The notes beneath the pieces were generated by a model, which was not told the DNA's origin, did not search any database, and was given only the letters and a program-made list of their open reading frames with translations. From contig CAWJNJ010000006.1 in NCBI GenBank assembly GCA_963844245.1, forward strand, positions 392,142 to 456,141: a DNA stretch of 64,000 nucleotides, read 5' to 3'. Every line of letters begins with the position of its first letter. Positions within the stretch are counted from its first letter, which is position 1. The stretch comes from an uncultured Acidobacteriota bacterium (lineage in GTDB: Bacteria; Acidobacteriota; Vicinamibacteria; Vicinamibacterales; 2-12-FULL-66-21). Below, piece by piece: positions 28,626 through 63,289 of the stretch. A program made the translations under genes and the position numbers.

Positions 28626-28693
28626 CGAAAGTGGCCAAAAAATTGGCCGAAGGCTACCGGCCGCTGGCCGGCGTCTAAATCAGCGACAACGAC

Positions 28694-40627: not shown

Positions 40628-40631
40628 GCAC

Positions 40632-40707: not shown

Positions 40708-40745
40708 AAGCTTATCTCCTGCTACAATTTACGGTCACCATCGAT

Positions 40746-42772: not shown

Positions 42773-42789
42773 CGCTGGCTCCTTGAGGC

Positions 42790-46951: not shown

Positions 46952-49878
46952 TGCGGTTACTGCTCCTTCTCTTCTGCTGCTGCGCCATCGGGACGGCTGA
47001 CGCCACTGCCCAGCAGGCGCCCGCGCCGAGTCTCTCCGCCGGCCAGCCCTCCGCGGCGGCGGCCTATGTCGGCAAGCCAGTGTCGGCGGTGATCCTGATG
47101 GTGGAAGGGAAGCCTCTGACCGACGAGATGCTGCTCGGGCTGATCGAGTCGCGCGTCGGTACGCCGTTTTCCATGGCCTCGGTCCGCGAGACGATCGCGC
47201 ACCTCTATAGCCTCGGCCGCTTCCAGGAAGTCTCCGTCGACGCCGCAGCAGATGGAGAGGGCGTTCGCCTGACCTATCAGCTCGTGCCGGTCCACAGCGT
47301 GCAGCGGATCGAGTTCACCGGCAACCTTGGACTCTCGAAAGGCGACCTGCACAAGGTGGTTGTGGATCGCTTCAGTGCGACCCCGTCGGCGGCCCGCGCC
47401 GCCAATGTCGCCGAGATGTTGCAGGGCTTCTATTTCGATCGCGGATACCTCGCCGCGGCCATCCGTCCGATCGTGGACGTCAGGCATGATCCCGATGCCA
47501 CGATCCTGACGTTCGCGATCGAATCGGGCCCACGCGTGCGCGCCCGCACGGTGCTCGTCGAAGGCGATCCGCTGCTGCCGCGAGAGAAGTTCCTCGACCG
47601 GATTCATGCGTCGCCCGGGCAGATCTACCAGCGCATCGACGTCCAGGAGCAGCTGTCGGAATACCTCACCGTCCTGCACCGGCAGGGCCGCTACGAGGCG
47701 CAGGGCGCTCATCGGATCCTGGCGCAGTCTGACGATGGGCAGAGCGTGGACTTGCTGGTGACGATCGATCCGGGTCCCGCGATCTCGATACGGTTCGAAG
47801 GGGATCCGCTCCCGAAAGCGCGTCTCGACGAGCTGGTGCCGATCCGCCAGGAGGGTGCGGCAGACGCCGACATCATCGAAGACTCGGAGCGGCGCATCGC
47901 TGCCTACCTGCAACAGCAGGGTTACTGGAAAGCGCTGGTGACGTCGTCCAGGCGCGACGTGAACGGTGCGGTCGAGATCGTGTTCACGATCCGGCAGGGC
48001 CTTCAGTACCGGATCGAGGGTGGCGCCGCGGTGAGCGGCAACGCCTCTGTTTCGGCCCTGGAACTCCGTCCGGCGCTCCAGAACCTGGATGACGGCGAGA
48101 TCTTCACGGTGGCAAATCTCGAGGCGTCGCTGTCGGCCATTCGCGGGCTCTACCTGCGCCGCGGCTTTGCGCAGGTGAAGGTCGAGTCGGCGGCGAGCGA
48201 GGCTAATCCCACGCCTGCCGGTGAGGGCCGTGTGAAGCCGGTGATCGCAATTACCGAGGGCCCCCTGATTACGATCGGGACGGTTACCTTCTCCGGGAAT
48301 GCGGACCTTTCATCCGACGTACTCACCGCCCGTCTCGGCTTACGTCCCGGGACGCCCTACTACGAGCCCCAGGTCATCCAGGATCGCGAGATGGTCCTGT
48401 CCGAGTATCTGAACCAGGGATTTGCCGCCGCGACGGTCGATGTCGTCCCCACGGTCATAGATGGATCCGTGGTGAACATCGACTTCAAGGTCACCGAAGG
48501 GCCACAGAGTATCGTCGATCACGTGCTCATCGTCGGCAACATCAAGACCGACGTCAGGGTGATCGAGCGCGAGATCCAGCTGCAGGAAGGACAGCCGCTC
48601 GGCCTCGAGGCGATGTTCGAGACGCGCCGGCGGCTGGCACAGCTCGGTCTCTTCCGGCGGGTTCGGATCGAAGAAATCCCCCACGGTGAATCGAATCGGC
48701 GCGACGTCCTGATCACGGTGGAGGAGGGACCGGCGACCACGATTGGCTATGGTGGCGGTCTCGAACTGACTGAGGTCCTCGCTCGGGGCGACGCGGGCGA
48801 AGCCGTCAGCAGGTTCGAGCTGGCACCACGTGGTTTCTTCGAGATTGGACGCCGGAACATCAGGGGCAAGAACCGTTCAGTCAACCTCTACACGCGCCTC
48901 AGTCTGCGCTCCGACTTCGACGAGGCAGAGGGCGGGCAGTTTGGCTTTGCCGAGTATCGCGTCCTCGGTACGTTCCGGGAACCGCTCACCTTCGGATGGA
49001 ATGCCGACGTGACGATTACGGCCGCGATCGAACAGGGCGTTCGCTCCACGTTCAACTTCGCGAGGAAGGGCATCAATGGCGAGATTCTGCGCCGCCTGTC
49101 ACCGGGGGTGCGTGTCAGCGCACGCTACACCTTCTCGAACACCAGGATTTTTGACCAGAGGCTGACCGACGAGAGCGACCAGGCCACGATCGATCGCGTG
49201 TTCCCGCAGGTAAGCCTGTCGGTCGTGTCGAGCGCGATCGCCAGGGATACGCGTGACGACGTGCTCGAACCAACTCGGGGCACCTTCATGAGCGCGGAGG
49301 GCAGCCTGGCGTCGCGTTTCCTCGGCGGCCAGGTGGGCTTCACCAAGTCCTATGTGCAGGCACAAGGGTACCGGAGCCTGTCCAAGTCCGGCCGGCTGAT
49401 CCTGGCGGGTCGCATCGCGCTCGGTCTCGCGGACGGCTTTCCCAGGGAAATCGAGACCACCGACCTGGCTGGAAATCCAATAACGCAGACGATCGAGGAC
49501 CTTCCCGCCAGCGAGCGGTTTTTCGCCGGGGGCGACACGAGCGTCCGCGGCTTCGCGCTCGACAGCCTCGGCACGGCCGAGACGCTCACCCCCAACGGGT
49601 TCCCACGTGGTGGCAACGGCCTGGTGCTGCTCAATGCCGAGCTGCGCGTGCCGGTCTGGCGCAACGTCGGTGCGGCTGTGTTCGTCGATGCTGGTAACGT
49701 GTTCGAACGGGCGACGCATATCGATATCTCCGAGTTGCGGACCACCGCCGGCTTTGGCATCAGGTATCGTTCGCCGATCGGGCCGCTGCGGTTCGACGTC
49801 GGGTTCAAGCTCGATCACCGTCCGTACGGCGACACCGACCGGCAGGCATTTCACTTCAGTTTCGGTCACGCCTTCTAG
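46951..49878 (+). CDS. bamA: Outer membrane protein assembly factor, BamA/Omp85 family
   Basis: 975-aa ORF with signal peptide, POTRA-like repeats and a C-terminal Omp85 barrel ending ..RQAFHFSFGHAF. The ATG overlaps the tamB stop by 1 nt. Confidence 0.88.
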   Translation: MRLLLLLFCCCAIGTADATAQQAPAPSLSAGQPSAAAAYVGKPVSAVILMVEGKPLTDEMLLGLIESRVGTPFSMASVRETIAHLYSLGRFQEVSVDAAADGEGVRLTYQLVPVHSVQRIEFTGNLGLSKGDLHKVVVDRFSATPSAARAANVAEMLQGFYFDRGYLAAAIRPIVDVRHDPDATILTFAIESGPRVRARTVLVEGDPLLPREKFLDRIHASPGQIYQRIDVQEQLSEYLTVLHRQGRYEAQGAHRILAQSDDGQSVDLLVTIDPGPAISIRFEGDPLPKARLDELVPIRQEGAADADIIEDSERRIAAYLQQQGYWKALVTSSRRDVNGAVEIVFTIRQGLQYRIEGGAAVSGNASVSALELRPALQNLDDGEIFTVANLEASLSAIRGLYLRRGFAQVKVESAASEANPTPAGEGRVKPVIAITEGPLITIGTVTFSGNADLSSDVLTARLGLRPGTPYYEPQVIQDREMVLSEYLNQGFAAATVDVVPTVIDGSVVNIDFKVTEGPQSIVDHVLIVGNIKTDVRVIEREIQLQEGQPLGLEAMFETRRRLAQLGLFRRVRIEEIPHGESNRRDVLITVEEGPATTIGYGGGLELTEVLARGDAGEAVSRFELAPRGFFEIGRRNIRGKNRSVNLYTRLSLRSDFDEAEGGQFGFAEYRVLGTFREPLTFGWNADVTITAAIEQGVRSTFNFARKGINGEILRRLSPGVRVSARYTFSNTRIFDQRLTDESDQATIDRVFPQVSLSVVSSAIARDTRDDVLEPTRGTFMSAEGSLASRFLGGQVGFTKSYVQAQGYRSLSKSGRLILAGRIALGLADGFPREIETTDLAGNPITQTIEDLPASERFFAGGDTSVRGFALDSLGTAETLTPNGFPRGGNGLVLLNAELRVPVWRNVGAAVFVDAGNVFERATHIDISELRTTAGFGIRYRSPIGPLRFDVGFKLDHRPYGDTDRQAFHFSFGHAF

Positions 49879-49889
49879 TGAGGAGGAAG

Positions 49890-50516
49890 ATGATGCGAAT
49901 GTTCGTTACCCTGCTGATCGCGATCGCGCTTGCCCCTGCCGTGCGCGCCGACGTGATCGACCGCATTCTTGCGACCGTTGGCGGAGCGCTGATCCTGCAG
50001 TCCGACGCGGTGGCGGCGGCGAGGTTCGGCTTCGTGGAGTTACCGCCACAGGGTGATCGTCTTCAATTCACGCTGGATCGGCTGATCGAGCGGCGGCTGA
50101 TGCTCATCGAGGTGGATCGCTATGCGCCGCCCGAGCCGCCCCGCTCGCTGCTCGACGAACGGATGCAGCAGATCGACCAGCGAATCGGATCCGGCGAGCG
50201 GCTCGACGCGCTGCTCAGGGAGACAGGATTCACCGTCGAACAGCTCCGCGTCTACGTGCGCGACGATCTGCGCATCGAGAGCTATGTGCAGCAGCGTTTC
50301 GGCACGGCCTATCGTCCGTCCGAAGAGGAGATCTTCGCCCACTACCGGTCGCACGAGTCCGAGTTCATGCGGGACGGCAAGGTGCGCCCGTTCGAGGAAG
50401 TGCGCGAGTTCGCGCGAACGTCGCTGCTGGCCGAGCGTCAGGCCGCGGCGGTGCGTGAATGGATGGCTGGCCTTCGCCGCCGCACCGAAGTGAACGTCCT
50501 CTACCTCGGGCGCTAG
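49890..50516 (+). CDS. SurA N-terminal-domain periplasmic chaperone-like protein (no PPIase domain)
   Basis: Signal peptide MMRMFVTLLIAIALAPAVRA, then VIDRILATVGGALILQSD..LDRLIERRLMLIE, which is typical of the SurA N-domain. AGGAGG at 49881-49886. Start at 49890 or 49893. Confidence 0.6.
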   Translation: MMRMFVTLLIAIALAPAVRADVIDRILATVGGALILQSDAVAAARFGFVELPPQGDRLQFTLDRLIERRLMLIEVDRYAPPEPPRSLLDERMQQIDQRIGSGERLDALLRETGFTVEQLRVYVRDDLRIESYVQQRFGTAYRPSEEEIFAHYRSHESEFMRDGKVRPFEEVREFARTSLLAERQAAAVREWMAGLRRRTEVNVLYLGR

Positions 50517-52300
50517 CGCGCGACCTCGACTCGCACGTAGTCGATACCCGCCGACAGCAGGCGGCCATCGCCGCCGAGGCCGACGTCCACCGGCCGCTGC
50601 GTCCGGCTGAACTCCAGCGTCAGCCGGTTCACGCCGGCACGCCATACCGATTCTTCCACCTCGAAGACAACTGTCGTCCACTCTGTCGGAACAGCAACCG
50701 GCGCCTGTCGTCGTCCATTGACGATGGGCGTCATCATTTGCGGTGGTGCACCCGGATAGTTGAATGCCTGGGCGCGAACCTGCACCCGCAGCGGGGCGGC
50801 GTGATCGAGCGCGATCAGCAGCGTCGCGGGCGAGAAGGCCCAGCGGAACGTTACGCCGCCGCCTTCCTCCGCACCGTGCCAGCCGTCCTCGAGCCAGAGT
50901 TCGTCGGCACTGCCGATGTCGATCCGTCCATAAGGCCTGAGCTCGTCGCCGAGAAAGCGTTGCGATGACAGCAGGTCGTAGGAGCCGATCGGCAGATCGT
51001 TGCGGAGAGCGAAGACGAGACTCACCGGGTAGGTGAAGGGATTCCCGAACCATCGGTGGAAGGCCCGGGCCTGGTGCGCGCCGGCTTCGCCGAACGAGGT
51101 GGCTTCGCCGATGCGAACGTGGCCGTCCTGCGCCGCGCTCATCAAGGTGAGGTTCCAGAGCACCAGCAGGGCCCCGCCTGATGCGACGGTTCGGAGAGGA
51201 TGCCGCTCGACGACCCGGGTGAGGGTCTGGACCAATGCGGCCACGCCCAGTGTGAACAGCGGGAGCGTGCCCTCGAAGCGGCGTCCGCCGTAGCCGGCGC
51301 TGCCCCACCAGTCCTGGATCGACGCGTTGAAGTAGGTCATCACCGCGATGGCCGCGAGCGCCGGCACACCGATCCACGGCCTGGCGACGGCAAAGACGAC
51401 GAGCCCAATCGCACCGAGGTAGAGGACCGGGGACCAGCTGAAGAGGCCATTGCGCGCCGACCAGAGGATGTCGACGAGCTGCGGGTCCCACCAGCGGATC
51501 TGCGGTCCGACCGGCGATACCGCAAGGAAGGAACCATAGATCGACTTCCACGCGATCATCTGCGGGATGAATCCAACCACCGCACAGGCCGTGAAGATGG
51601 CCCCGACGGCCAGGGTACCAGTCACCACCGGCCGGTCGCGCCGGCGCGCCGCCGCCACGAGCATCGTCAGGGCCTCGTATGCAGGCAGGATGGCGAACAA
51701 CGCGTTCTGCCAGCGGATCAGGGTGATGAATCCGGCGATGAGACCGAGCAGCGCCCACTGCAGACGCGTTCGACGTCCGTGGGTTGCCGCCCACATCCAG
51801 GTGAACCCGGCGACGCCGGCCATCGACGGGGCATGCGTCATGCTCGGTTCCTTCACCATGTACCAGAGCATGAAGGACCCGCAGATCACGAGCGCAACCG
51901 CCCCCGCCGCGAGACGCCGGTCGAAGAAGATCGTGGTCAGCCGATAGGTGAACCAGCAGCCAAGCAGGGCGTAGAACAATCCGGCGATGCAGACCGCCTG
52001 CCGGTACGGATACGAGATGCCGTTCGTGCTGACATCGGCGCCAGTCGCCGCGAGCCGGTTCGCAATCGGGTGCGCGGCGGCGAAAAACGGCGCCCATACG
52101 ATCGCAGGTCCGATCGTCCACGCCGATTGCGCGTAGCCGGTCGGGGTCGGATTGAAGAGGTGAGCCTTGTCGCCGAGACCGAGCAGCTTGTAGTCGTTGC
52201 TGAACTCGACATCCCGATCGAACACGATCGAGCGCAGGTAGGCGAAATAGTAGAAGCCGTCGCTCTGAAGGCGCGCGCCGAGGTGAAGCTGGGCCGCCAC
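50513..52300 (-). CDS. Unassigned polytopic membrane protein, GT-C-like, with a C-terminal soluble beta-rich domain (paralogue B)
   Basis: 595-aa ORF from GTG 52300 with more than 10 TM segments. The first-loop motif is LQSDGFYYFAYLRSIVFDRDVEFSNDY. The in-frame upstream sequence (..DVLDGRARSRRIAPFLFAALFATG) has no start codon. The true N-terminus probably begins at GTG 52556 (GTGA overlap with the upstream stop) and joins through a one-base insertion between about 52300 and 52420. Confidence 0.6.
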   Translation of the reverse strand: MAAQLHLGARLQSDGFYYFAYLRSIVFDRDVEFSNDYKLLGLGDKAHLFNPTPTGYAQSAWTIGPAIVWAPFFAAAHPIANRLAATGADVSTNGISYPYRQAVCIAGLFYALLGCWFTYRLTTIFFDRRLAAGAVALVICGSFMLWYMVKEPSMTHAPSMAGVAGFTWMWAATHGRRTRLQWALLGLIAGFITLIRWQNALFAILPAYEALTMLVAAARRRDRPVVTGTLAVGAIFTACAVVGFIPQMIAWKSIYGSFLAVSPVGPQIRWWDPQLVDILWSARNGLFSWSPVLYLGAIGLVVFAVARPWIGVPALAAIAVMTYFNASIQDWWGSAGYGGRRFEGTLPLFTLGVAALVQTLTRVVERHPLRTVASGGALLVLWNLTLMSAAQDGHVRIGEATSFGEAGAHQARAFHRWFGNPFTYPVSLVFALRNDLPIGSYDLLSSQRFLGDELRPYGRIDIGSADELWLEDGWHGAEEGGGVTFRWAFSPATLLIALDHAAPLRVQVRAQAFNYPGAPPQMMTPIVNGRRQAPVAVPTEWTTVVFEVEESVWRAGVNRLTLEFSRTQRPVDVGLGGDGRLLSAGIDYVRVEVAR

Positions 52301-52552
52301 GCCTGTGGCGAAGAGCGCGGCGAAGAGAAACGGCGCGATGCGCCGCGAGCGCGCCCTCCCGTCCAGAACGTCGCCGCCGCGGGAAGCGGCAATGCCAGCA
52401 GCAGCCGCCGATGACGGCGATTACTGTCAGCGTCCACAGCCCGGGGCGCATCCCAAGGACCATCTCGAGGATTGAGCGGCGGGCCACTTCCCGCGCGCAG
52501 AGCTCCACGATCACGACCGCGAGAATTGCCCAGGCCCCCGGACGCAGGAACC

Positions 52553-54055
52553 TCACGGACGGACTTTCACGATCCGCAGCTCAGGGCCTGGATGCTCATC
52601 GCTGGCCGTGAACCGCGCGACCTCCTGCCCGCGCGTGAAGAGCGTCATGTAGGCGGTGAACTCCTCGCGGTACGTGGACGGCGACGCCAGGTACGGTCCA
52701 TAACACTGCGACGATGCGATGAGGTAGTCGGCGCGGGCCTCGACGTACTGGTCGTAGGTCAACTGGCGCAATTGACGCATGCGGCGACTCTCGTAGCGTG
52801 CCGGGAAGGTGAGGTGATTACCCTCCTGCACGATGCGGGATCCCTCCGGCGCGTTCTCGAGTATCCAGCGATAGGCGAGATCGGTGGTCGAGGTCTTGGC
52901 GATGATGCGGTCGAAACTCAGCGCCGTTGCCGCCGGCGGACCGAGCAGCGCAATGGTCAAGCCGGCGATGAGGGCAGTGCGAACACCGCGGGGAAACTGG
53001 TACCGCCGCAGGAGGCTCACGCCCGAGATCACCGCCGCGGCCGCCAGCACGCACAGCATCGGCACGATCGGCAGCATGTACCGCGCATAGATGATGCGCT
53101 GCTCCGCCACGATCAGGAAGTACGGGATCGTGAAGACCAGCGCGACGGCCCACGGTACCCGGCCCGGCCCGCCGACGGCTCGCACCAGACCCATGAGCAG
53201 CCCGCCGGTGATGAGCAGCATCCCCGGCAGCCCGAACTGCAGGCGGAGGTGCTTCAAGTAGATGATGATGCCGGCCTCCGGCGGCGGCGGACCGTTGCGG
53301 TACTCAGCCGTCAGACTGGCGAAGCGATCCAGAAATCCCGGCAGGTCCAGGATGGTGAACGGCGCGGCAACAAAGAAGGCCACGGCCGCGGCGCCGATCG
53401 CCGCCAGCGCGCAGACCATGCGTGACGGCCGCGCGGCGGGCGTCATCCAGCAGGCCAGCAGCGGCATCAGCAGCGCCAGCCCGCCGTTGTACTTGACTGC
53501 GGCTGCGAGGCCGGCCATTGCGCCGGCCCACACAAACGCCCGCACGACCGGGCGCTCGTGCGCCGTCAGCGCCATCAGCATGGTCAGCGCCACGAAGAAT
53601 GTCAGAGGGATGTCGGTCAGAACGTAGTGCGAGTAGCGGACGTGCAGGGGCATCAGCGCCATCAGCGCCGCGGCCAGCAGCGCGTGTCGTGCGCCCCAGC
53701 GCAGGCCGATCCGGAACACGACCAGCACCGTCGCGACGCCGAACGCCGCCGTTACGGCCCGCCCCCACAGGTAGAAGCTGTCGCTGGTGACGTGCGCGAG
53801 CGAGTCCCAGGCGCCGGTCACGGATCCGGCGATGAAGCGGACCACCGAAACGAGAAACTGGATGTAGATGAGGAGCTGGCCGTAGTCGAAAAAGTGAGGA
53901 TTGAGCGTCCCCGCCTTCATCATGCGCAGGGCGCGTTCGACGATTTCCGGTTCGTCAACGCTGAGGGCGTGCGGAATCCCATGCCCGAGCGCCCAGAAGC
54001 GCAGCGCTGCCGCGACCGCGAGAACGAGCAGCAGCCCGAGACGGGACGGACGCAT
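52553..54055 (-). CDS. Glycosyltransferase family 39 (ArnT/PMT-like) polytopic membrane protein
   Basis: MRPSRLGLLLVLAVAAALRFWALG..LSVDEPEIVERAL first-loop acidic motif, about 12 TM segments and a C-terminal periplasmic domain. ATG 54055 is preceded by GAGG at 8 nt. The track ORF starts at TTG 54088. Confidence 0.78.
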   Translation of the reverse strand: MRPSRLGLLLVLAVAAALRFWALGHGIPHALSVDEPEIVERALRMMKAGTLNPHFFDYGQLLIYIQFLVSVVRFIAGSVTGAWDSLAHVTSDSFYLWGRAVTAAFGVATVLVVFRIGLRWGARHALLAAALMALMPLHVRYSHYVLTDIPLTFFVALTMLMALTAHERPVVRAFVWAGAMAGLAAAVKYNGGLALLMPLLACWMTPAARPSRMVCALAAIGAAAVAFFVAAPFTILDLPGFLDRFASLTAEYRNGPPPPEAGIIIYLKHLRLQFGLPGMLLITGGLLMGLVRAVGGPGRVPWAVALVFTIPYFLIVAEQRIIYARYMLPIVPMLCVLAAAAVISGVSLLRRYQFPRGVRTALIAGLTIALLGPPAATALSFDRIIAKTSTTDLAYRWILENAPEGSRIVQEGNHLTFPARYESRRMRQLRQLTYDQYVEARADYLIASSQCYGPYLASPSTYREEFTAYMTLFTRGQEVARFTASDEHPGPELRIVKVRP

Positions 54056-54094
54056 GTCGCTCGCCTCGCGCCATTCGCGTTCAGCCAAGTAAAT

Positions 54095-55504
54095 TCAAGC
54101 CTCGTTACTCACGTGGGGCTCTGCCCCACACCCCGGCTCGGTCGCTCGCGGGGCCCCGACACCCCGCGCCGCTCCCTCGCAGGCGCGCCCTGCGCGCCGG
54201 GAGCGTGTGGTTTCTGAGCACGCTGTTTGGGGAAAATCGTAGCTTACTACAGGCACCGGTCTGGACAGCAGACGCTGGTAGAGGCGGATCGTCTCCTGGA
54301 CCGCGGCGGTCCACGAGAAGTCACGCTCCACGATCGCGCGCCCCTCGATCCCCATCTCCGTCAGCCGCTCCCGATCCTCGAGCGCACCGCTGATCGCGGC
54401 CGCGAGGGCGGCGGGATCGCCGGCTGCGACGATCCAGCCGTTGACGCCGTTCTTGACCTTGTCGGGCAGCCCCCCGGCATCCGTGACGACGCACGCCCGT
54501 CGGTGCGCCATCGCCTCCAGGGTGACCAGCGAGCTGCCTTCGTAGAGGGTGGGATGCACGAACAGGTCGGCTGCCTCGTACCACGAATGGAGCTCGCGGT
54601 CCGGCGCCTTGCCGGCAAACAGGACGTTGCTGGTGAGCCGCAGCTCCGACAGCAGTAGTTCCAGCTGCCCGCGGAACGGGCCGGCGCCGACGATAACCCA
54701 GCGCCACCGGCCGTGCGCCAGCCGTCCAGAATGCTCGCGCAGCGCAGCAAGTGCCTGGGCGAGCAGGTGAAAGCCCTTGTTCGCTTCGAGCCGGCCGACA
54801 CTCAACAGCACCACTTCATCGGTAGCAATGCCGGCCGCCTCGCGCACCCGGACGCCGTCGGCCGGATGCGCCATCGCGTCCACGTCCGCCAGATCCAACG
54901 CGTTTGGGATGGTCGCGATCTTGTCGTCGGCAACGCCCAGGTGCTGGCGGACCGCCGGCTCGAGGGCGCGGTCGGTGGCAATCACGGCGTCCGCCCGGCG
55001 CGCGCACGCGATGACGGCGCGTCGAAGTGGTAAATACGCAGCCCGCTTCAGCCTCGCACGGGACGGATCGGTGGCGCCAAACTCCTCGAGCCCCTGCGGA
55101 TTCAGAACCAGGGGCGCTGACAGCGAGGGCCGCCGTCTCGCGTAGCCGAGCACGCTCGCGCCGAAGCCGTGGACGATGTCCACCTCGCCGCGGGCGACCA
55201 TCTCGGCGGCGAGCATGCCGGCGCGGTAGCCGAAGAGGGGATAGGCGGTGCTCCGGTCGAGCACCGTCGTGCCACGCCGTCCAGCGAAGGGGAACGTCCG
55301 ATAAGGCACGAACGCGAGCTGCACGTCGGGGTGGACCGCGTCGGCGTCGGCCGGTGCGTGCGGCGTGCGTGTAATGAGCGTGACGCGGACGCCGTTTCTC
55401 GCCAGGTGCCGAGCGAGATCGTAGACGCTGCGCTCGAGGCCGCCGAGCCCGTGAAGCGGGAACACCGAACGCGCCGTGATCGCGACGCGGAGCGGGGAAC
55501 TCAC
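54095..55504 (-). CDS. GT4-family glycosyltransferase
   Basis: GT-B fold: N-terminal FPLHGLGGLERSVYDLARHL and C-terminal YEGSSLVTLEAMA..VVTDAGGLPD. The last 56 codons (54095-54262) have non-coding-like codon bias. The true stop is probably TAG-TAA at 54244-54249, reached by removing one base at 54252-54253. Confidence 0.82.
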   Translation of the reverse strand: MSSPLRVAITARSVFPLHGLGGLERSVYDLARHLARNGVRVTLITRTPHAPADADAVHPDVQLAFVPYRTFPFAGRRGTTVLDRSTAYPLFGYRAGMLAAEMVARGEVDIVHGFGASVLGYARRRPSLSAPLVLNPQGLEEFGATDPSRARLKRAAYLPLRRAVIACARRADAVIATDRALEPAVRQHLGVADDKIATIPNALDLADVDAMAHPADGVRVREAAGIATDEVVLLSVGRLEANKGFHLLAQALAALREHSGRLAHGRWRWVIVGAGPFRGQLELLLSELRLTSNVLFAGKAPDRELHSWYEAADLFVHPTLYEGSSLVTLEAMAHRRACVVTDAGGLPDKVKNGVNGWIVAAGDPAALAAAISGALEDRERLTEMGIEGRAIVERDFSWTAAVQETIRLYQRLLSRPVPVVSYDFPQTACSETTRSRRAGRACEGAARGVGAPRATEPGCGAEPHVSNEA

Positions 55505-56761
55505 AGCCGCGGCTCCCGGATGACGTCGTGGTAGAGCGCTTCGACGCGCGCGATCACGGCACTCGAGTCGAACTTCTCAGCCGTCCGCTTCGCGGCTGCC
55601 GCGCCGAGCCGCTGCCGCAGCACCTCGCCATGCCGGATCCGCCGCACGTCCTCGGCAAGCCCGGACGGGTTGTCGGATAAGAGGCCGGTAACCTCGTCCT
55701 CGACGATGTCGGTCGTGCCGCCGGTGTTCATGGCCGCGATCGGTATGCCGAGCGCGCTGGCTTCGAGCAGCACGCGGCTCAGCGACTCTGGACCTCGCGA
55801 TGGAAAAATGAGCAGACCGGCGTGCGCGATCCACGTCGCGGTCTGTGCCTGATCCAGCCACCCGGTGAACCGCACGTCCTGGCCGGATGCGCGCGCGGCC
55901 GCCTCGATGCGGGCGCGGTCAGGCCCGTCACCGACGATGACCAGGGGCCAGTCCAGTTCGGCGTGCCGAGCGACGTCCACGAGATGGTCGGTCCCCTTGT
56001 TAGGCGCGAGCTTGCCGACGTAGAGCGCGTAGGGGTCCGGCATCGGCCGCGGCGTCGCGGCCGCTCTCAGCAAAGCGCTCACGTTGACCGGATTGGGGAT
56101 GATTTCAAGCCGAGTCGCGCGCCAGCTCCGGGGCCCGCGCGAGAAGGTCCCGTGCGATGACCGAGCTCACCGCGATCACGGCGCTGGCCGACGCGAGTGC
56201 GTCGATCTTCTGCGCCATGTTGCGGCGCAGATACGTCTGCGCGATCGCGCGCGCGAATCCGAGGACGCCGATGCGCGGACGGCCATGCTGCACTCGAGCC
56301 GCCTGCGAGCAGCCCGGGCAGAGCGCGAGGGTTGCGGCCGTGTGGATCATGTCGGACCTGTAGCAGACCGGCCAGTAGTCGCGAACGGTCACGACACTCG
56401 GAATACCGCGGCGTCGCGCCGCCATCACGGCGGGCGGCGCCGACAGCACGTGCTGCCCGTGGACGACATCGATCCTGTTCGCGATGATCAGTTCTTCGAG
56501 CCGGCTCGCGAGCCGCGGGTACAACCGCTCATTCTTGAAGTAGTTCCTGACACCCGGCAGCGACGGCGCAAAGGCGTGGTACTCGATGACGCGAATCCCG
56601 TTGTAGACGGTCGAGGTCTCAGGCGCGCTCTTGCCGGCGACGACCTTGACGACCAGCACGGTGTGCCCCCGGTCCACGAGTCCGCGCGCCAGCTCATAGG
56701 TGCTCCAGCCGCTGCCACCGCAATTGGGCGGGAACGAATCGGTCGGGAGCAGGATGTTCAT
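55501..56761 (-). pseudogene. GT4-family glycosyltransferase, frame broken by one extra base
   Basis: N-half (56105-56761: MNILLPTDSFPPNCGGSGWSTYELARGL..) and C-half (55501-56082 frame: ..LEIIPNPVNV..YVGKLAPNKG..EASALGIPIAAMNTGG) join if one C of CC 56110-56111 is removed. Confidence 0.8.
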
Positions 56762-57911
56762 GGCGTTGGACGAAGTTGCCTGATCCGGTCGTCCAGGGTG
56801 CGGCAGTGCGCTTCCCAGCTGTACTCGCGCAACGCACGCTCACGAGCCGCGATCCCCAGCCTGACCCGCAGCTCGGCATCGTCTGCGAGTTCCGCCAAGG
56901 CCGCCGCAAGCGCATTGTCGTCCGACGGGTCGTAGAGCACGCCTTCTCGTCCCTGGCCGACCAGCTCGGGGATCCGCGCGATCCTGGGTGCGACCACCGG
57001 GAGTCCGGAGGCCATGTACTCGAACATCTTCAATGGCGACCAGTAGAACCCCAGCGCGAGCGGCTTGTGGGCGCCAATGTCGAATGGCGCGACACCGACA
57101 TGCGCGGACGCCAGTGCGGCAGGCATGAGACGAGTGCGGCAGCGCGCCGGTGAAGACGACGTGCTCCAGGCTGGCGGCTTCGGCCTTGACGGACGGAAGC
57201 TCCGGCCCGTCGCCGATGAACAGCGCCGAAATATCCCGACGGCCGCGCTCGCGCAGCCGGCGGATGGCTTTGGCCAGGTTGATGGCCCCGTGCCAGTTGC
57301 GAAAAGCTCCAGCGAACACCGCCACCACACCCGGCGGCGGCGTGAATGGCAGCGGACTCTCTGCACCCGGGTGAAACCGCACCGTGTCGGCGCCCCACTC
57401 GGCTTCGAGGATCTTTGCCGGCGGCGTCGAACGCGGCAGAATCGCGGCGTCGGGCGTGACAATGAGATCGGCGGCGGCGCAGAGACGCTCGCGCCAGCGC
57501 TGCATCGGCCGGACGAGCAACACGCTGTCGATCACCGCCTTGGTCGAGCCCGGATGGTCCACGACCGGCGCGTTGACTTCGAGGACGGCGCGCGCGTGCA
57601 GGTCCCTCGCGTGCAGGATCGCCTCACCACCGAAGTTGTAGTACCCGCTCCATCACGACGTCAGGCCGCAGCTGCTCGGCGATTCGCTTTACCGCACCGC
57701 TTCGCGCCCAGCGCAGTTGGTGGGCGCCAAAGGGCGGCCGCATCGGTAGCCACGTCACCGAGCCCGCCGGAAACGGAGCATCCCCAGGTCCGACCAGTAC
57801 GTGGACGTCATGTCCGAGCGCCGCGAGCCCCTCCGCAACCGCCGTGACATGGACGGAACCACCCTTGGTGCCGGGGACCGTCTGGTCGATCGCGGAGTAG
57901 AGGATCTTCAT
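56758..57911 (-). pseudogene. GT4-family glycosyltransferase, frame broken twice by single extra bases
   Basis: Segment 1 (57911 frame) is MKILYSAIDQTVPGTKGGSVHV..PDVVMER. Segment 2 (57562 frame) is YYNFGGEAILHARDL..VVFTGALPH. Segment 3 (57462 frame) is RLMPAALASAHVGVAPF..LKMFEYMASGLPVVAP... The junctions are at CCC 57644-57646 and at about 57131-57136. Confidence 0.75.
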
Positions 57912-58972
57912 TTCTTCACGAGCAGTGCGAAGAACGGACCGGAGCGAATGCGCCCGAACAGCAGCAGGTCCAGCTTCATGGCGAACGACAGCCCGCGAAG
58001 CGCCGCGTAGGTCGGACCGCTTGCCGCGATTCGCTCTTTGGCGGCCGTGCGCGCTTCGCGGATGGCGGCGGCATCGGCTTCCGCCGCACCCGCTCCCTTG
58101 GTCGTGGCGCGTGCGGCGGCCCGGCGCGCCATCGCCCGCTCCGCCATCCGCATCATGATGTTCTCGACGAAGCCACCGACGATCGGCGTGTAGTAGCGGA
58201 TGCGCTGGATGCGGAACCCGGCCGCCGCGACGACGCGTTCGAGATGCGGGACGTCCTCGAGCGGGTTGAGATGGTCCGACTTGCGCAGGCGCTCCTGGCG
58301 CAGGTCGATGAGGTCCCAGCGTTCGAGCTGCCGCGCCAGCTTGTTGATCCACTTCAGCCCGGCGGCAACCGGGGCGTTCTTGCGGACGTGCGTGTAGACA
58401 AACAGCGCGCCGCCCGGCTTGAGCACGCGCGCCGCTTCTGCGAGCATGCCGTCGAGCGCGTCGGGCGAGAGGTGCTCGAGCACGTCGAGCGACCAGGCCT
58501 TGTCGAACGTATTGTCGGCAAACGGCAACTGCCGCAGATCCGCCAGCATCAGGTCGATCTGCTGCCGCGCATCGTGCGAGAAAAACGGCGCGATATCGAT
58601 GCCGATGACATCGGCGCCGAGGTCCCGGTTCCACAGCACTGCGCGTCCGCTGCCGCAGCCCAGGTCCGCAATCAGTTCGCCCCGCTTCGGCGCCAGGAAG
58701 GACCGAAGCATGTCGTTGCGAATGCGAGAGCCGAGCAGTGGGGGAGACACTCGTTCGTGCCTGGCATCGGCATGCAGCGCCTCGTCCAGGTACTTGGTCT
58801 GCTCGGCATACATCTGCAGCGGACGGATATCGAGAAAGTCGCTCGGGTTCTCGTAGCCGCGGCCGCAGCCACTGCAGACGAGTCGCACCTGTCCGCCCTC
58901 CGCGCTCGATCGGACGAGCGTGCCCCTGCAGTCGGCGCAGCGGACGATGGACAGCAGGCGATCGGAAATCAT
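57908..58972 (-). CDS. Class I SAM-dependent methyltransferase with an N-terminal Trm112-like zinc ribbon
   Basis: CADCRG..CSGCGRGY zinc ribbon and SAM motif I ADLGCGSGRAV. ATGA overlaps at both ends. Confidence 0.85.
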   Translation of the reverse strand: MISDRLLSIVRCADCRGTLVRSSAEGGQVRLVCSGCGRGYENPSDFLDIRPLQMYAEQTKYLDEALHADARHERVSPPLLGSRIRNDMLRSFLAPKRGELIADLGCGSGRAVLWNRDLGADVIGIDIAPFFSHDARQQIDLMLADLRQLPFADNTFDKAWSLDVLEHLSPDALDGMLAEAARVLKPGGALFVYTHVRKNAPVAAGLKWINKLARQLERWDLIDLRQERLRKSDHLNPLEDVPHLERVVAAAGFRIQRIRYYTPIVGGFVENIMMRMAERAMARRAAARATTKGAGAAEADAAAIREARTAAKERIAASGPTYAALRGLSFAMKLDLLLFGRIRSGPFFALLVKK

Positions 58973-60156
58973 GATGCGTGCACGACGTCTTTCAAGAGGG
59001 CTTCGAGGCGTTCGGCCCGACGTGGCCAGGTGTAAGCGGCCGCGTCGCTCGATGCGGTGTGTGCGAGACGTCCGGCCAGCGCCGCGTCATTCATCAAGGT
59101 GCGCATGGCGCGCGCGATCGCGTCCGCACTTCCCGGCTCGACCAGTAGCGCGTTCTCACCGTCCCGCAGTACTTCCCTGATCGCCGGCAGGTCAGAGGCA
59201 ATGATGGCCCGGCCGGCCGCCATGTACTCGAACAGCTTGAGCGGTGACGTGAAGTGCGTCGAGATCGCCGAGGCCGGGTTCGGCAGGACCAGCATCGTCG
59301 CTTTCGCCAGGTGGCCGGGGACCATCGCGGGTGGGATGAGCCCCGTGAACGTCACCCGCTCTTCGATGCCGAGCGTGTCGGCCAACGCCGTCACGCGGGC
59401 GAGGTCAGGCTCGGCGGCGTGGCCGCCGACGATCAATCCACGAACCTCTGGTACGAGCGCGATCGCCTGCAACAGGATGTCGACGCCCTTCCACGCGTAG
59501 AGGTGCCCGGCGTAGCCGGCGACAGGCGCGAGACCGGCAGAGTGTGGTGGCGGTGGCGGTGTCGACGCCCTCATGCCGTCCGGCACAACCGCGAGCTTCT
59601 GTCGTGGCCCAAGCCGCCGCTGCAATTCGTCGGCAAGCGCCTGCGTAATGGTGACGTAGCCGTCCGCACTCTGCCACACGGCCGACTCTCGATCGGCGAG
59701 GCGCTTCAGTTTGGCCGGGCTCGCGGGCTTGGCGGTTGCGACCAGCTCGGGCAGAGCTGCCGCGACGTCCGGCGCGTAGCCGTGCGATTCGTAGACGACC
59801 GGCGCTCGCATGCCGGCCGGCATCATCAGCAGCGCGGCGGCGACCCCAAGGTCACGCGTGAGGATCACGTCGGCGCGCGCCTTGCCGAACGCTCGCCCGA
59901 ATACGAACGACATGTAACCAACGCGCGCGAGCAAGCCGGCGCCCTTCGGCGCGTTGGCCCGTTCGATGATCAGCGACTTGATCGACGGCAGTCCGTAGAA
60001 CTCGAACGGATCCCGGACCGGGCTGTGCGTGTCGGGCTTCACGACCAGGTGCACGGTGTGGCCGCGCTCGGCGAGCGCATGGCACGTTTCCATGGTCTGG
60101 ATGCCATTGGCCCGTTCGAGCGGGAAGCGGATATCGGCGAAGTACAGGATCCGCAT
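58969..60156 (-). CDS. GT4-family glycosyltransferase
   Basis: MRILYFADIRFPLERANGIQTMETCHALAERGH.. N-terminus and C-terminal SPLKLFEYMAAGRAIIASDLP. Start at ATG 60156 (the track ORF extends spuriously to 60876). It overlaps the upstream stop by 1 nt. Confidence 0.85.
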   Translation of the reverse strand: MRILYFADIRFPLERANGIQTMETCHALAERGHTVHLVVKPDTHSPVRDPFEFYGLPSIKSLIIERANAPKGAGLLARVGYMSFVFGRAFGKARADVILTRDLGVAAALLMMPAGMRAPVVYESHGYAPDVAAALPELVATAKPASPAKLKRLADRESAVWQSADGYVTITQALADELQRRLGPRQKLAVVPDGMRASTPPPPPHSAGLAPVAGYAGHLYAWKGVDILLQAIALVPEVRGLIVGGHAAEPDLARVTALADTLGIEERVTFTGLIPPAMVPGHLAKATMLVLPNPASAISTHFTSPLKLFEYMAAGRAIIASDLPAIREVLRDGENALLVEPGSADAIARAMRTLMNDAALAGRLAHTASSDAAAYTWPRRAERLEALLKDVVHAS

Positions 60157-61565
60157 CAATGCTGCTTCGGCTGCGATTCGTAGAACGACCCGCGGTCGGT
60201 GAGATAGCGATAGGCCAGCGACGGCCCCGTCAGTGGCAGGGTCACGAACGCGTGATAGGCGTTGCGGCCGGGCTCGAGCCGCTGCCGATCCATCAGCCGG
60301 GTTGCAAACTGCGCCATCAACGCGAGGTTCCACCAGGTGCACACGGCGATCGCGACAGCGAGACCGACGGCGAGCCTGTTGGTCAGCCACGACGAACGCT
60401 CGGGAACGCGTTGCCGGCCGGCCCTTTCCGAACGAGCCGCTGCCGTCCACAGTGCGGCCAGGCCGATGACGAGGATGATCGTCAGGTTCACGAAGCGCCG
60501 CTGGCCGAACGCGCCCGCGACCGTCCACGACTCGACACTGCCGGCGACGTAGACCTGCGAGGCAACCATGATCGCGAGGCTGACGGCAACGATCCTTTCG
60601 CGGACGAAGAAGAGACCGATCAGCGCCAGTATGGCCAGCGGCGTCCAGAAGAAGAGTCCGTGGTGCGGTGATGCCAGCACCTGCAGTCCATGCGGTGCGT
60701 ACCAGAACATTTTCCGTTGTACGTGCTCGGCGGGACCGGGATAGCCGTTGAGGGCGTTGTAGGCGAGCAGCTGTGGCAGATAGCCGAGGAGGGTCCCGGT
60801 CACGCCAGCCCGGCGGCGATCGGAACGCGAGAGCGTGGGCGCACCTGCGAGGCAGACCTGGCGACGCGCCGACCACGCGAAATCGAGCGCCGGTCCGAGC
60901 GCGAGGAAGACGTCCTGCTCACGGACCATGGCGAGCAGCGCCGCACAGAGTCCGAGCGCGAATGCTCCGCCGGCGGACCATGATCGGCGCACGTGCAACC
61001 AGACGTTGACGAAGAGCGCCACTGCGAAGGCCGAGCACGCATGCGAGAACGGTGGCGCGACGTACATGTAGAAGAGCAGCGGTGTGCCAAGCCAGACCGC
61101 CAGACCGGCGGCAAAGGCCCCGCTGGCCGGGCGAATGCTTCCATCAGTAGGCCCGACCTTCAGGTCGGGCGACGACCCGATCACCCGTGCGGCGCGGATC
61201 GACAGCAGGATGGCGAGGAACCCGTAGAACGCGGATCCGTAGGCCACCGCACGGACATACGGCGTCGTGAAGCCGTTCGCCTCGTAGCTGTCACCCGCTC
61301 GAGTCCACGCATCGGCCGCCGCGTAGAACGGCGACCACAGGATCGCCGCGCCCACCGTTCCGTAGTTCACACGTCGTCCGGCCGCGGTCTCGCGCTCGAG
61401 AAAGGTCTCGTGAAAGCCCCCCGACTGGGCGATGTTGCGGTCGTAGAAGTAGCGGTATTCATTCTCGAACGAGACGTCCCGGTCGAAATAGAGCGATCGC
61501 AGGTAGGAGAAATACTGCACCTCATCGGACGAGTAGAGCCGGGCCGTGACCGCCGGCAGCGACAC
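60156..61565 (-). CDS. Unassigned polytopic membrane protein, GT-C-like (paralogue A)
   Basis: 469-aa ORF from GTG 61565. The first-loop motif is LYSSDEVQYFSYLRSLYFDRDVSFENEY. The in-frame upstream sequence back to the CPBP stop (..LIALLDRLARFFLLTRREFLALALLFL) looks coding but has no ATG, GTG or TTG, so the start is unresolved. It contains an in-frame palindromic element at 61147-61171. Confidence 0.6.
   Translation of the reverse strand: MSLPAVTARLYSSDEVQYFSYLRSLYFDRDVSFENEYRYFYDRNIAQSGGFHETFLERETAAGRRVNYGTVGAAILWSPFYAAADAWTRAGDSYEANGFTTPYVRAVAYGSAFYGFLAILLSIRAARVIGSSPDLKVGPTDGSIRPASGAFAAGLAVWLGTPLLFYMYVAPPFSHACSAFAVALFVNVWLHVRRSWSAGGAFALGLCAALLAMVREQDVFLALGPALDFAWSARRQVCLAGAPTLSRSDRRRAGVTGTLLGYLPQLLAYNALNGYPGPAEHVQRKMFWYAPHGLQVLASPHHGLFFWTPLAILALIGLFFVRERIVAVSLAIMVASQVYVAGSVESWTVAGAFGQRRFVNLTIILVIGLAALWTAAARSERAGRQRVPERSSWLTNRLAVGLAVAIAVCTWWNLALMAQFATRLMDRQRLEPGRNAYHAFVTLPLTGPSLAYRYLTDRGSFYESQPKQH
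61147..61171. repeat. Palindromic element copy embedded in frame in a coding sequence
   Basis: GTAGGCCCGACCTTCAGGTCGGGCG is identical to 39053-39077. On the coding (minus) strand it reads SPDLKVGPT within an approximately 14-aa segment that is absent from paralogue B. Confidence 0.9.
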
Positions 61566-61651
61566 GAGGAACAGGAGCGCGAGAGCCAGAAACTCGCGTC
61601 GTGTGAGCAGGAAAAAGCGGGCGAGGCGATCCAGAAGGGCGATGAGGAATG

Positions 61652-62209
61652 TTACCTCAGCGCCACATGCTTCAGGATCTGCGCGAGGTTGAACCCGGCG
61701 TGGCTCACGACGGGCGCGATGATGCTGCCGCGGCGCAAATACACGAAACCCCAGAACGCCCCGAGCGTGCCGGTCGCAATCACCGCGTCGTAACCCTGCT
61801 CGAAGTGGCCGAGCCCGAAGAGCGCGCTGTAGAAGAGGACCCCATAGACGCCTCCGCCCAGATACTGCCCGAAGCGGTGGACGATAAAGCCGCGCTGGAC
61901 CTCTTCACGCACGCCGCCCGAGATCATGACCACGACCGCGAAAACGAGAATGTGGTTCCGCGTCTTCAGCAGGTCATGGAGTGGATTCGACACCACGTTG
62001 TGCAGGTACGGCGCATAGGTAATCACGAGCGCCATGATGAAGACGACGATGAAGAAGACGACCGGAATCATGAGGATGCCGACGACCACTTCCCGGAGGA
62101 CCCGGACGCGGCCGATCAGCACGTCGCGCGCGCTTTCGTGGTGCGCCCGCAGGAACAACAGGACCAGCCCGATCACGAGCGCCGCATCCAGCAGCGAGAC
62201 CGTAAACAC
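61652..62209 (-). CDS. CPBP-family intramembrane glutamic endopeptidase (CAAX protease-like)
   Basis: Motifs EEVQRGF (EExxR), FGLGHF (FxxxH) and HAGFNL (HxxxN). The frame stays open upstream to TAA 62336-62338 (RIGAILEVIICSGFPTQLLLIAVL..) without a canonical start, so the N-terminus is unresolved. Confidence 0.78.
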   Translation of the reverse strand: MFTVSLLDAALVIGLVLLFLRAHHESARDVLIGRVRVLREVVVGILMIPVVFFIVVFIMALVITYAPYLHNVVSNPLHDLLKTRNHILVFAVVVMISGGVREEVQRGFIVHRFGQYLGGGVYGVLFYSALFGLGHFEQGYDAVIATGTLGAFWGFVYLRRGSIIAPVVSHAGFNLAQILKHVALR

Positions 62210-62436
62210 GAATTGTGGATTCAGTCCGCCCCCGCTCGCCTGGACCGGCAGCCCGAACCCGCTCAGAACCGCAATCAGCAGCAGCTGTGTCGGGAATCCG
62301 GAGCAGATGATGACTTCGAGGATGGCACCGATCCGTTAACGGTCAGCAGTGCCGTTCGAGCCGGCGATGGTGAGGCGTCGATGGTAGATGGTAAACGCGC
62401 CTCATTATGCCGACAGCTACATGGAAAAGGGCCAAG

Positions 62437-62470
62437 GGAAGATGGAACATGAATCCCTCTTCCATCTTCC
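62437..62470 (-). terminator. Perfect 11-bp inverted repeat downstream of the glycine-zipper lipoprotein gene
   Basis: GGAAGATGGAA (62437-62447) and TTCCATCTTCC (62460-62470) flank a 12-nt loop. On the minus strand it is followed by CCCTTGGCCCTTTTCC. It lies 29 nt after the stop at 62499. Confidence 0.5.
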
Positions 62471-63245: not shown

Positions 63246-63289
63246 GATAATGGGACTCCTCCAGCTCGAGTGTGCAACGCCAGTGCCGT

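Follow-up and report, generated by a model that had tools for sequence, protein, structure and literature searches.

What does a compact set of glycosyltransferase genes make when neither a priming enzyme nor a polymerase nor an exporter is encoded beside it? We addressed this question for a 64,000-nucleotide stretch of DNA, here called the window, from an uncultured member of the Vicinamibacteria in the phylum Acidobacteriota (assembly GCA_963844245.1, contig CAWJNJ010000006.1, positions 392,142 to 456,141). An earlier reading made from the letters alone, the sequence-only reading, had described nine of its genes as a translationally coupled operon for envelope glycosylation that follows the logic of actinobacterial lipoglycan pathways. 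Open reading frame (ORF) and Pfam analysis of the window recovered these nine minus-strand genes in the order claimed, namely CPBP, GT-C A, GT4_1, a methyltransferase, GT4_2, GT4_3, GT4_4, PMT_2 and GT-C B (Table 1), and the family calls for the CPBP protein, the four GT4 enzymes, the S-adenosylmethionine (SAM)-dependent methyltransferase and the PMT_2 protein all hold. The six stop/start junctions it listed are likewise present in the sequence, as a TGATG overlap at 60154-60158, ATGA overlaps at 58969-58972, 57908-57911 and 56758-56761, and GTGA overlaps at 55501-55504 and 52553-52556. The stop of GT4_4 (54095) lies 6 nucleotides (nt) from the TTG start of PMT_2 (54088), and the CPBP stop (61652) about 8 nt from a conserved in-frame ATC (61643) of GT-C A. 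Order and junctions stand, but four of the nine genes are broken ORFs in this assembly, a point to which we return.

The reading we prefer, tentatively and with a little less than even confidence, is that the operon serves the two-compartment assembly of a short, defined, lipid-anchored envelope glycan, a glycolipid or lipoglycan being the preferred product. What is missing is central to it. No substantial ORF of the window encodes Wzx/Wzy, an ABC exporter, a priming transferase, a GT2 enzyme or a nucleotide-sugar enzyme, as the sequence-only reading had stated, and the only ABC protein in the window (24624-26750) is of the ABC-F type. The possibility that exporter and priming genes sit just beyond the cluster was not borne out either: no initiating transferase, flippase, polymerase, chain-length regulator, exporter, GT2 enzyme or nucleotide-sugar gene was found in the window or within 10 kb in relatives (four Pfam-annotated loci), and neither the 64-kb window nor these four neighbourhoods qualify as a Wzx/Wzy-, ABC- or synthase-dependent locus. 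The absence of a priming enzyme, polymerase and exporter argues for a defined glycan made on a pre-existing lipid. Lipid-anchored assembly of the kind proposed would need no polyprenyl-phosphate priming enzyme.

Conservation across Vicinamibacteria

We scanned one genome per species for relatives of the locus, using GT-C A as the search anchor, and found a relative in 254 genomes, the best 80 of which were examined. The proteins of the window were mapped onto these loci and presence was counted only where enough flanking sequence was available; GT-C A is present in all of the approximately 80 loci by construction. The best 80 of the 254 genomes were all metagenome-assembled genomes (MAGs) of Acidobacteriota and, wherever classified further, of Vicinamibacteria. 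GT-C A has a 100%-identical counterpart on a 591-kb contig, and its close homologues all come from MAGs of Acidobacteriota/Vicinamibacterales. GT-C A, GT4_1, the methyltransferase and GT4_2 to GT4_4 co-occur in this order in at least 96% of eligible loci (Table 1). The neighbourhoods of the four Pfam-annotated relatives have the same gene order as the window, with 4-nt overlaps of the same kind in relatives' clusters. On the 5' side the relatives have a divergent pair, histidine kinase and sigma54 response regulator, in some loci followed by a lipoprotein gene, then CPBP and GT-C A; on the 3' side follow sometimes a further paralogue, X, then a GT4, the methyltransferase, three more GT4s, PMT_2, GT-C B and a convergent SurA-like gene. 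By a hidden Markov model (HMM) of the A/B family, each locus holds one to four GT-C genes.

Rather than being scattered in related genomes, the outcome that by the sequence-only reading would refute it, the orthologues are strictly syntenic across Vicinamibacteria, and because this synteny is kept in about 80 species-level genomes the arrangement exceeds chance. The earlier claim of a nine-gene unit stands for a conserved core only, made up of GT-C A, the methyltransferase and all four GT4s and joined in most loci by CPBP; PMT_2, GT-C B and X are accessory, lineage-specific additions.

The loci differ from one another in several details. X (about 445 amino acids, aa) lies between GT-C A and GT4_1 in locus L001 (6839-8188), in L002 (11443-12780) and in about 10 further loci, while five loci (L048, L060, L063, L068 and L082) have a B-like gene upstream of A and are without a CPBP gene or regulator. 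In some relatives extra genes stand between GT4_4 and PMT_2, heterogeneous to judge from their translations and including a BlaI/BlaR-like pair and further membrane proteins, and L001 has a DUF2062 gene and a second methyltransferase by precomputed Pfam calls. The genes inserted at this point in relatives gave no clue to a donor or flippase.

Vicinamibacteria correspond to Acidobacteria subdivision 6 and are among the most abundant soil bacteria, and to our knowledge almost nothing is known of their cell envelope. In the literature on Acidobacteria or Vicinamibacter with GT-C, CPBP or lipoglycan we found no description of the cluster. An operon of 7-10 genes whose order is kept in at least 60 species-level genomes points to an undescribed, conserved envelope glycoconjugate.

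Table 1. Features of the glycosylation cluster and its flanks in the window, with their presence in eligible related loci
Feature	Position	Strand	Basis or detail	Loci with feature/eligible loci
NtrC-type sigma54 response regulator gene, divergent	63430..64000	+	tblastn; runs off the window	57/68
Sigma54-type -24/-12 element CGGCACTGGCGTTGCA	63273..63288	-	27 nt upstream of the lipoprotein ATG	
Lipoprotein gene, 248 aa, neighbouring	62499..63245	-	Lipobox AAAGC in translation	40/68
Hairpin GGAAGAUGGAA...UUCCAUCUUCC followed by CUUGGCCCUUUUCC	62423..62470	-	Between lipoprotein and CPBP genes	
CPBP (Rce1-like) predicted intramembrane glutamic protease gene, ~250 aa	61652..62405	-	Pfam Rce1-like	61/72
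GT-C A, polytopic, ~495 aa	60156..61643	-	AlphaFold2 and Foldseek; annotated version 469 aa	Search anchor
GT4_1, intact, ~395 aa	58969..60156	-	Pfam Glyco_transf_4 and Glycos_transf_1	68/70
SAM-dependent class I methyltransferase, 354 aa	57908..58972	-	Methyltransf_11, 76 bits	65/67
GT4_2, ~384 aa, two 1-nt indels	56758..57911	-	tblastn with intact orthologues	67/67
GT4_3, ~419 aa, one 1-nt insertion	55501..56761	-	Pfam on two halves	62/63
GT4_4, intact, 469 aa	54095..55504	-	Glycos_transf_1, 127 bits; Glyco_transf_4, 84 bits	61/61
PMT_2 (GT39/GT83-like) GT-C enzyme, 511 aa	52553..54088	-	Pfam PMT_2 and PMT	35/59
GT-C B, paralogue of A, ~680 aa	50513..52556	-	C-terminal CBM6/35-like beta-sandwich, ~50516-50938	11/35 (count partly limited by flank length)
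SurA-N-like periplasmic chaperone gene	49878..50516	+	Last gene of convergent tamB-bamA unit	

The membrane glycosyltransferases

GT-C A and GT-C B, which share 30% identity (E = 3e-38), are paralogues with no Pfam match at E <= 0.01 and no NCBIfam model, and a PDB sequence search with GT-C A returned no match. No protein of the cluster attains any curated NCBIfam cut-off; A, B and X share a weak match, below the cut-off, to the Leptospira 'LA_3751/LA_3752 putative glycosyltransferase' model. Both proteins have many long hydrophobic helices, as expected of polytopic membrane proteins, and their structural models are almost wholly helical, with a pLDDT of 93.4 and pTM of 0.94 for the AlphaFold2 model of A and a pLDDT of 91.4 for B, modelled with AlphaFold2 on a 90%-identical full-length orthologue. 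In Foldseek searches of the PDB with A, ranks 1-24 were all GT-C enzymes (probability 0.98-1.00, TM-score 0.31-0.54); ALG12 was best (0.52-0.54), and STT3 of the oligosaccharyltransferase (OST), PglB, AftA, EmbA/B/C, Pmt4 and ALG3 were also matched. For B, EmbA/B/C, AftA, OST and AglB came top, with E down to 2e-7, and its C-terminal beta-sandwich independently matched carbohydrate-binding modules (CBMs) of families 6, 35 and 36 (TM-score 0.52-0.64); orthologues of B measure 660-685 aa. The 'GT-C-like' label given to these two unassigned proteins is thus supported at the level of fold.

What the sequence-only reading had missed is their kinship. Judged by sequence comparison, A, B and X are a divergent branch of the PMT_2/GT39-83 clan. 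Ten of 47 members of the A/B family match PMT_2 (PF13231; best E = 1e-7), and in a relative from Thermincola, 35% identical, PMT_2 is found as well, the protein bearing the name GT39 or 'RgtA/B/C/D-like'. A and B themselves score below the Pfam PMT_2 gathering threshold and so are not members by the HMM criterion. A comparison of the A/B profile with the single PMT_2 protein by hhalign gave a probability of 19% and was set aside as unusable. At 50% clustering the A/B family comprises 3,809 representatives at E <= 1e-3 and 230 at E <= 1e-30, and the cluster offers family context, a fold and candidate catalytic residues to some 3,800 clusters (50% identity) of 'hypothetical' membrane proteins.

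These residues follow the first transmembrane segment (TM1). In A, TM1 leads into SSD40E (D40 at 61524-61526) and FD54RD56. A 55-member alignment has D40, D54, W103, P105 and R382 without exception and D56 in at least 90% of sequences, with H201 as a further conserved position. The equivalents of D40, D54 and D56 in B, namely D100, D114 and D116, are invariant in a B-centred alignment. The invariant Asp just after TM1 is on the opposite side from an RR-flanked N-terminus and, by the positive-inside rule only, would face the periplasm. The third membrane enzyme of the window passes both the PMT_2 (46.3 bits, cut-off 26.1) and the PMT (45.2 bits, cut-off 22.7) thresholds; it has a VDE motif after TM1, about 10 hydrophobic segments and a soluble C-terminal domain of about 110 aa, and its one match in the PDB, to yeast Pmt1, is marginal (E = 0.0046). 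Its N-terminus, xEREWREASDMRPS, is kept in orthologues, which supports the TTG start at 54088.

The start of GT-C A itself is probably a non-canonical ATC at 61643. Gene callers choose a GTG at 61565, which would remove TM1, and in the GT-C A family TM1 is conserved upstream of many called starts. A GAGG overlapping the CPBP stop codon precedes the ATC by 10 nt (CTGAGGTAA; 61641-61660), and the ATC is conserved together with the upstream peptide EVTF(P/L)IALL in L004, L006, L001 and L009, loci from several unrelated projects that, to judge from their contig names (SPAdes NODE, megahit k141), were probably assembled from short reads. In the more distant L011 and L012 it aligns with a TTG start.

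The cytoplasmic enzymes and the CPBP protein

The four GT4s and the methyltransferase have no predicted transmembrane segments, from which we take them to act in the cytoplasm. The two-domain structure of the GT4s was seen directly by Pfam in GT4_1, GT4_3 (N-domain in 56105-56761, C-domain in 55501-56082) and GT4_4, and is indicated for GT4_2 by its L001 and L002 orthologues, which carry both domains in precomputed Pfam calls. The nearest solved relatives of the GT4s are generic (MshA, a sucrose-phosphate-synthase-like protein, BshA, PimA and PimB') and those of the methyltransferase are assorted O- and C-methyltransferases, so neither set gave a pointer to a specific sugar or acceptor. At its N-terminus the methyltransferase has a CxxC...CxxC zinc ribbon resembling Trm112p, a weak match (E = 1.1e-3) that does not reach the cut-off, and at its C-terminus it is extended by about 110 aa. 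Alone among the four GT4s, GT4_3 has in its N-terminal domain a Cys insertion (C...CPGC; around WPVCYRSD...LCPGCS), conserved in its orthologues, that may be a metal-binding or membrane-association element; a tail of about 50 aa in GT4_4 is common only to the closest relative.

The CPBP gene encodes a predicted protease, as judged from a Pfam Rce1-like score of 61.3 bits (PF02517, cut-off 22.4) and three catalytic motifs, REEVQR, FGLGH and SHAGFN, which are also conserved in its orthologues. Its longest intact ORF, 61652-62209, had been taken to begin at the gene start, but the start is most likely the ATG at 62405, by comparison with L004; orthologues are 241-255 aa long and align from 62335.

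A proposed two-compartment pathway

The scheme we propose starts from what was established directly, namely the gene content, the folds, the predicted locations, the acidic residues after TM1 and the synteny. Two compartments are supported by GT4s and a methyltransferase that lack transmembrane segments on the one hand, and by the polytopic A, B and PMT_2 on the other. As to substrates, the order of the steps, flipping and the nature of the product, we infer that at the inner face of the membrane the GT4s would assemble a short oligosaccharide on a lipid together with the methyltransferase, the cytoplasmic SAM-dependent enzyme possibly O-methylating one sugar. A transporter encoded elsewhere would flip this glycolipid. 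At the periplasmic face GT-C A would extend or decorate it from polyprenyl-phosphate-sugar donors, and X, B and PMT_2 would, according to lineage, add sugars in the same manner, B holding the glycan acceptor through its CBM-like domain. The co-conserved CPBP protein may process or scaffold a component of the machinery.

Precedent for this division of labour comes from the actinobacterial pathway to phosphatidylinositol mannosides (PIM), lipomannan (LM) and lipoarabinomannan (LAM), in which cytoplasmic GT4s (PimA, PimB') are followed by extracytoplasmic GT-Cs (PimE, MptA/B, EmbC, AftA-D) and there is no polyprenyl-diphosphate priming, Wzx/Wzy or ABC exporter. Those GT-C enzymes of LM/LAM synthesis that have been characterized work on the extracytoplasmic face, with polyprenyl-phosphate sugars as donors (PMC3485146, PMC12041525), the C-terminal module of EmbC is a lectin-like CBM (PMC3044687), and GT-C B carries a C-terminal CBM as EmbC and AftA do (PMC3044687, PMC3485146, PMC12041525). 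The present host, in contrast, is a diderm acidobacterium, and genes for phosphatidylinositol (PI) synthase, a PatA-type acyltransferase or Ppm1 were found neither in the cluster nor in the rest of the window, nor within 10 kb in relatives. The GT4s show no particular likeness to PimA, the GT-Cs are related to PMT_2 rather than to GT87, GT53 or GT85, and the whole forms one tight operon that includes CPBP and methyltransferase genes. The lipoglycan logic advanced by the sequence-only reading is supported in part, by the GT-C folds, the synteny and the Emb-like CBM.

Several points weigh against the lipid-anchored glycan. The proposed pathway calls on genes not seen, since the lipid acceptor, the flippase and a GT2 enzyme for polyprenyl-phosphate sugars are not provided by the cluster. 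The GT4s are no closer to PimA/PimB' than to MshA, BshA or sucrose-phosphate synthase; matches to the PimA/PimB' structures (E = 1e-7 to 1e-9) are weaker than those to MshA and other non-PIM GT4s. In many genomes GT-C A is the sole GT-C within 10 kb, so that periplasmic 'extension' may be a single step. The scheme does not account well for the CPBP protein, and function in this particular organism depends on the indels in four frameshifted genes being errors.

We regard as doubtful the bolder proposal that the cluster makes a class-wide, unrecognized lipoglycan or complex glycolipid of Vicinamibacteria by an LM/LAM-like route, with a GT-C stage formed by this PMT_2-clan branch together with an Emb-like GT-C-CBM protein, and with CPBP as an integral part. 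If true, it would be the first lipoglycan pathway of LM/LAM-like type outside Actinobacteria.

The logic of the pathway is already known from LM/LAM, ArnT/Rgt and ALG; new here are the lineage of the host, the subfamily to which the GT-C enzymes belong and their constant association, in a tight operon, with a methyltransferase and a CPBP protein. The cluster also reveals a recurrent CPBP-GT-C pairing and is a compact test case for the coupling of GT-B and GT-C stages in a diderm without a priming enzyme or dedicated exporter.

Alternative products

Systems with the same arrangement of GT-B enzymes inside and GT-C enzymes outside, namely lipopolysaccharide (LPS) core/lipid A decoration and the ALG pathway, had been left out of account by the sequence-only reading. 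An LPS-core product is unlikely. Here the GT4s would glycosylate Kdo2-lipid A, MsbA would flip it, and the GT-Cs would decorate the core or lipid A from polyprenyl-phosphate donors. Lipid A-core needs neither a priming enzyme nor a dedicated exporter, matching their absence, and this alternative explains the missing genes as well as the glycolipid reading does. ArnT and Rhizobium RgtA/B glycosylate lipid A/Kdo in the periplasm from undecaprenyl-phosphate sugars, and ArnT (GT83) and RgtA/B are diderm PMT_2/GT39-83 GT-Cs acting on a flipped lipid-anchored glycan with no dedicated exporter (PMC4402001). Distant members of the A/B family are annotated RgtA/B/C/D-like, one of them also as GT39. The window also holds an LpxC gene (6051-7004), 44 kb from the cluster, from which it follows that the organism makes lipid A, and the cluster, present across the class, adjoins tamB-bamA-surA. 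That adjacency is convergent and may reflect mere conserved gene order, however, and neither here nor in relatives is the cluster accompanied by waaA (GT30), a GT9 heptosyltransferase, an O-antigen ligase, or kds or further lpx genes; LpxC apart, the window showed no lpx, kds or waa gene. The GT4s are not LPS-core-specific. The arn and rgt loci, moreover, have donor genes (the GT2 ArnC or RgtE, the ArnEF flippases) that the cluster lacks, and lack the four GT4s and methyltransferase that are here co-conserved with a GT-C.

Protein glycosylation is distinctly unlikely. The GT4s and methyltransferase would in that case build a polyprenyl-linked oligosaccharide, as ALG2 and ALG11 do, to be extended or transferred outside by GT-C steps like those of ALG3/9/12, PMT or STT3/PglB, with the neighbouring Pro/Ala/Thr-rich lipoprotein as a candidate target. 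The eukaryotic and archaeal ALG pathway to lipid-linked oligosaccharides does place GT4s inside (ALG2/ALG11) and GT-Cs outside (ALG3/9/12/6/8/10; STT3/AglB), and ALG12 is the best structural match of A, with STT3 and PglB behind it; identity is 10-13%, a likeness of fold only. The PMT_2/PMT-type enzyme is bona fide, with an Asp-Glu after TM1 as in GT-C A, and the lipoprotein has a long P/A/T/S-rich linker. Against this, the cluster has no GPT-type or other initiating phosphoglycosyl transferase, no flippase and no oligosaccharyltransferase with a large soluble domain, A being without the large periplasmic domain of such enzymes. Compared with the PMT (GT39) family, the PMT_2 protein lacks MIR domains and matches yeast Pmt1 only weakly, and A and B do not reach the Pfam thresholds. 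About 40% of loci lack PMT_2, and about 40% lack the lipoprotein, while A and the GT4s are constant, and the lipoprotein appears to form a separate sigma54 unit.

An ordinary exopolysaccharide (EPS), capsule or O-antigen locus with its priming, polymerase and export genes elsewhere in the genome is very unlikely: split polysaccharide loci exist and offer a precedent, and the best NCBIfam scores of the GT4s are with EPS-type models (stp2, stp3, EpsE), far below the cut-offs, but no such genes lie within 10 kb in the inspected loci or in the 64-kb window, loci of this kind do not typically have several GT-C enzymes or an Emb-like CBM, and content and order are near-invariant across about 80 species where EPS and O-antigen loci are typically hypervariable. 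The PEP-CTERM/exosortase EPS systems, with their stp1-3 GT4s, PrsK/PrsR sigma54 two-component system and CAAX-protease-related protein, share with the cluster, superficially, GT4s, a CPBP/CAAX-type protein and an adjoining sigma54 regulator and histidine kinase; in the present case the sigma54 promoter tracks a lipoprotein gene and not the glycosylation operon. We rejected this assignment on scores well under the cut-offs (stp2, 134.7 vs 409; stp3, 97-106 vs 442; PEP_resp_reg, 407.7 vs 502.6; pepcterm_CAAX, 21 vs 81), and no exosortase was seen.

Frameshifts in the assembly

About six 1-nt indels lie within the cluster and break the CPBP, GT4_2, GT4_3 and GT-C B genes; the sequence-only reading had passed over them, reading through each. 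Those in the GT4 genes were located by tblastn with intact orthologues from two related contigs, L001 and L002. GT4_2 is spread over three frames (-3, -1, -2), with shifts near 57636-57643, where an extra G makes GAGCGGGTAC of the expected GAGCGGTAC, and near 57126-57134; intact orthologues of 378 and 384 aa give three collinear pieces of 61-72% identity. GT4_3 occupies two frames on account of a 1-nt insertion in GGCGCGCGAC near 56118-56120, its orthologue aligning as residues 1-214 and 215-418. In GT-C B the frame opened by GTG 52556 gives way to another at about 52378-52398 (longest intact ORF, 50513-52300); residues 1-53 of its orthologue P0289 align in frame -3 from 52556 and residues 60-679 in frame -1. 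The CPBP gene is interrupted in its N-terminal part, by 1-nt deletions near 62392 and near 62338.

These indels are very probably assembly errors, because orthologue amino-acid identity of 63-90% continues across each shift and because topA, tamB and a carboxylase gene of the same window are split alike: topA (16849-19291) has Toprim/Topoisom_bac and its zinc ribbons in separate frames, tamB (42787-46951) is divided between two halves of the TamB domain, and the acyl-CoA carboxylase alpha gene (40554-42772) is divided between BC and BT/BCCP. It is improbable that the cluster in this genome is instead a decaying array of pseudogenes in which the frameshifts are real and the pathway is lost. The density of about six indels in 12 kb, set against three detected in the remaining 52 kb, where detection is much less sensitive, would fit such decay. 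Yet the genes split elsewhere are essential or conserved, and no in-frame stops, deletions or raised divergence accompany any shift. Many related contigs are MFD MAGs whose clusters break at other positions; related MFD MAGs come from Nanopore-only sequencing (PMC12313526). Other long-read MAGs also have breaks elsewhere in the cluster (L003, and fused PMT_2-B frames in L002 and L005), while L001 and the JGI locus, of short-read origin to judge from their contig names (k141, megahit-style) and source, are intact. Gene calls in this and related long-read assemblies are thus corrupted by 1-nt indels, and comparison with orthologues is needed.

The PMT_2 and GT-C B frames are fused as one long ORF, of 818 aa and larger, in several relatives (L002, 18721-21177; L005, 17385-21011; L006, 8429-11851). 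The fused 818-aa product of L002 aligns to the window in several frames, which points to indels, and the fusion in L005 and L006 may be a true one.

The lipoprotein gene and its probable sigma54 control

Upstream of CPBP lies the lipoprotein gene, whose product has a Pro/Ala/Thr-rich linker and a Gly-rich C-terminal region and gave no Pfam or NCBIfam match. It is preceded by a sigma54-type element of the form CGGCAC-N5-TTGCA, beside the divergent NtrC-type regulator, which is 81-85% identical to the L001 and L002 regulators by tblastn (its Pfam and NCBIfam searches were run on an orthologue). Of 38 related loci that have the lipoprotein gene, 37 also have the element, as against none of 18 that do not, with a background of 0.05 per kb; in those 18 loci the CPBP gene directly follows the regulator. 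Sigma54 control of the glycosylation operon, considered because of the divergent regulator, is therefore not supported and was rejected in that form, as the element tracks the lipoprotein gene and disappears with it. The sigma54 system most likely controls the lipoprotein gene, which is probably a separate sigma54-dependent unit; going by this pattern, the divergent NtrC-type two-component system would serve that lipoprotein alone.

The hairpin between the lipoprotein and CPBP genes, with an 11-bp stem in the minimum free energy structure and a U-rich tail, is a possible terminator or attenuator. The stability of the 101-nt region around it is not unusual (z = -1.1), and a simple terminator scan missed the site. 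The same kind of scan, for terminators and promoters, yielded nothing convincing within the operon.

Flanking genes and the rest of the window

At its other end the cluster meets the tamB-bamA unit. The sequence-only reading had placed the operon downstream of tamB-bamA-surA, but the two are convergent: the 3' ends of GT-C B and the SurA-like gene overlap by 4 bp (50513-50516), and this stop-codon overlap leaves no space for terminators between the converging operons. The Rotamase_2 match in an orthologue of the SurA-like gene is weak. The convergent placing of the gene is kept in many related loci.

Elsewhere, the G+C content of the window is 64-70%, and a second sigma54 response regulator (21801-24521), 42-44% identical to the one beside the cluster, adjoins a PAS histidine kinase. 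Two genes for extracytoplasmic function sigma factors are also present, at 7791-8438 and at 28679-29278, the latter followed by a zf-HC2 anti-sigma gene.

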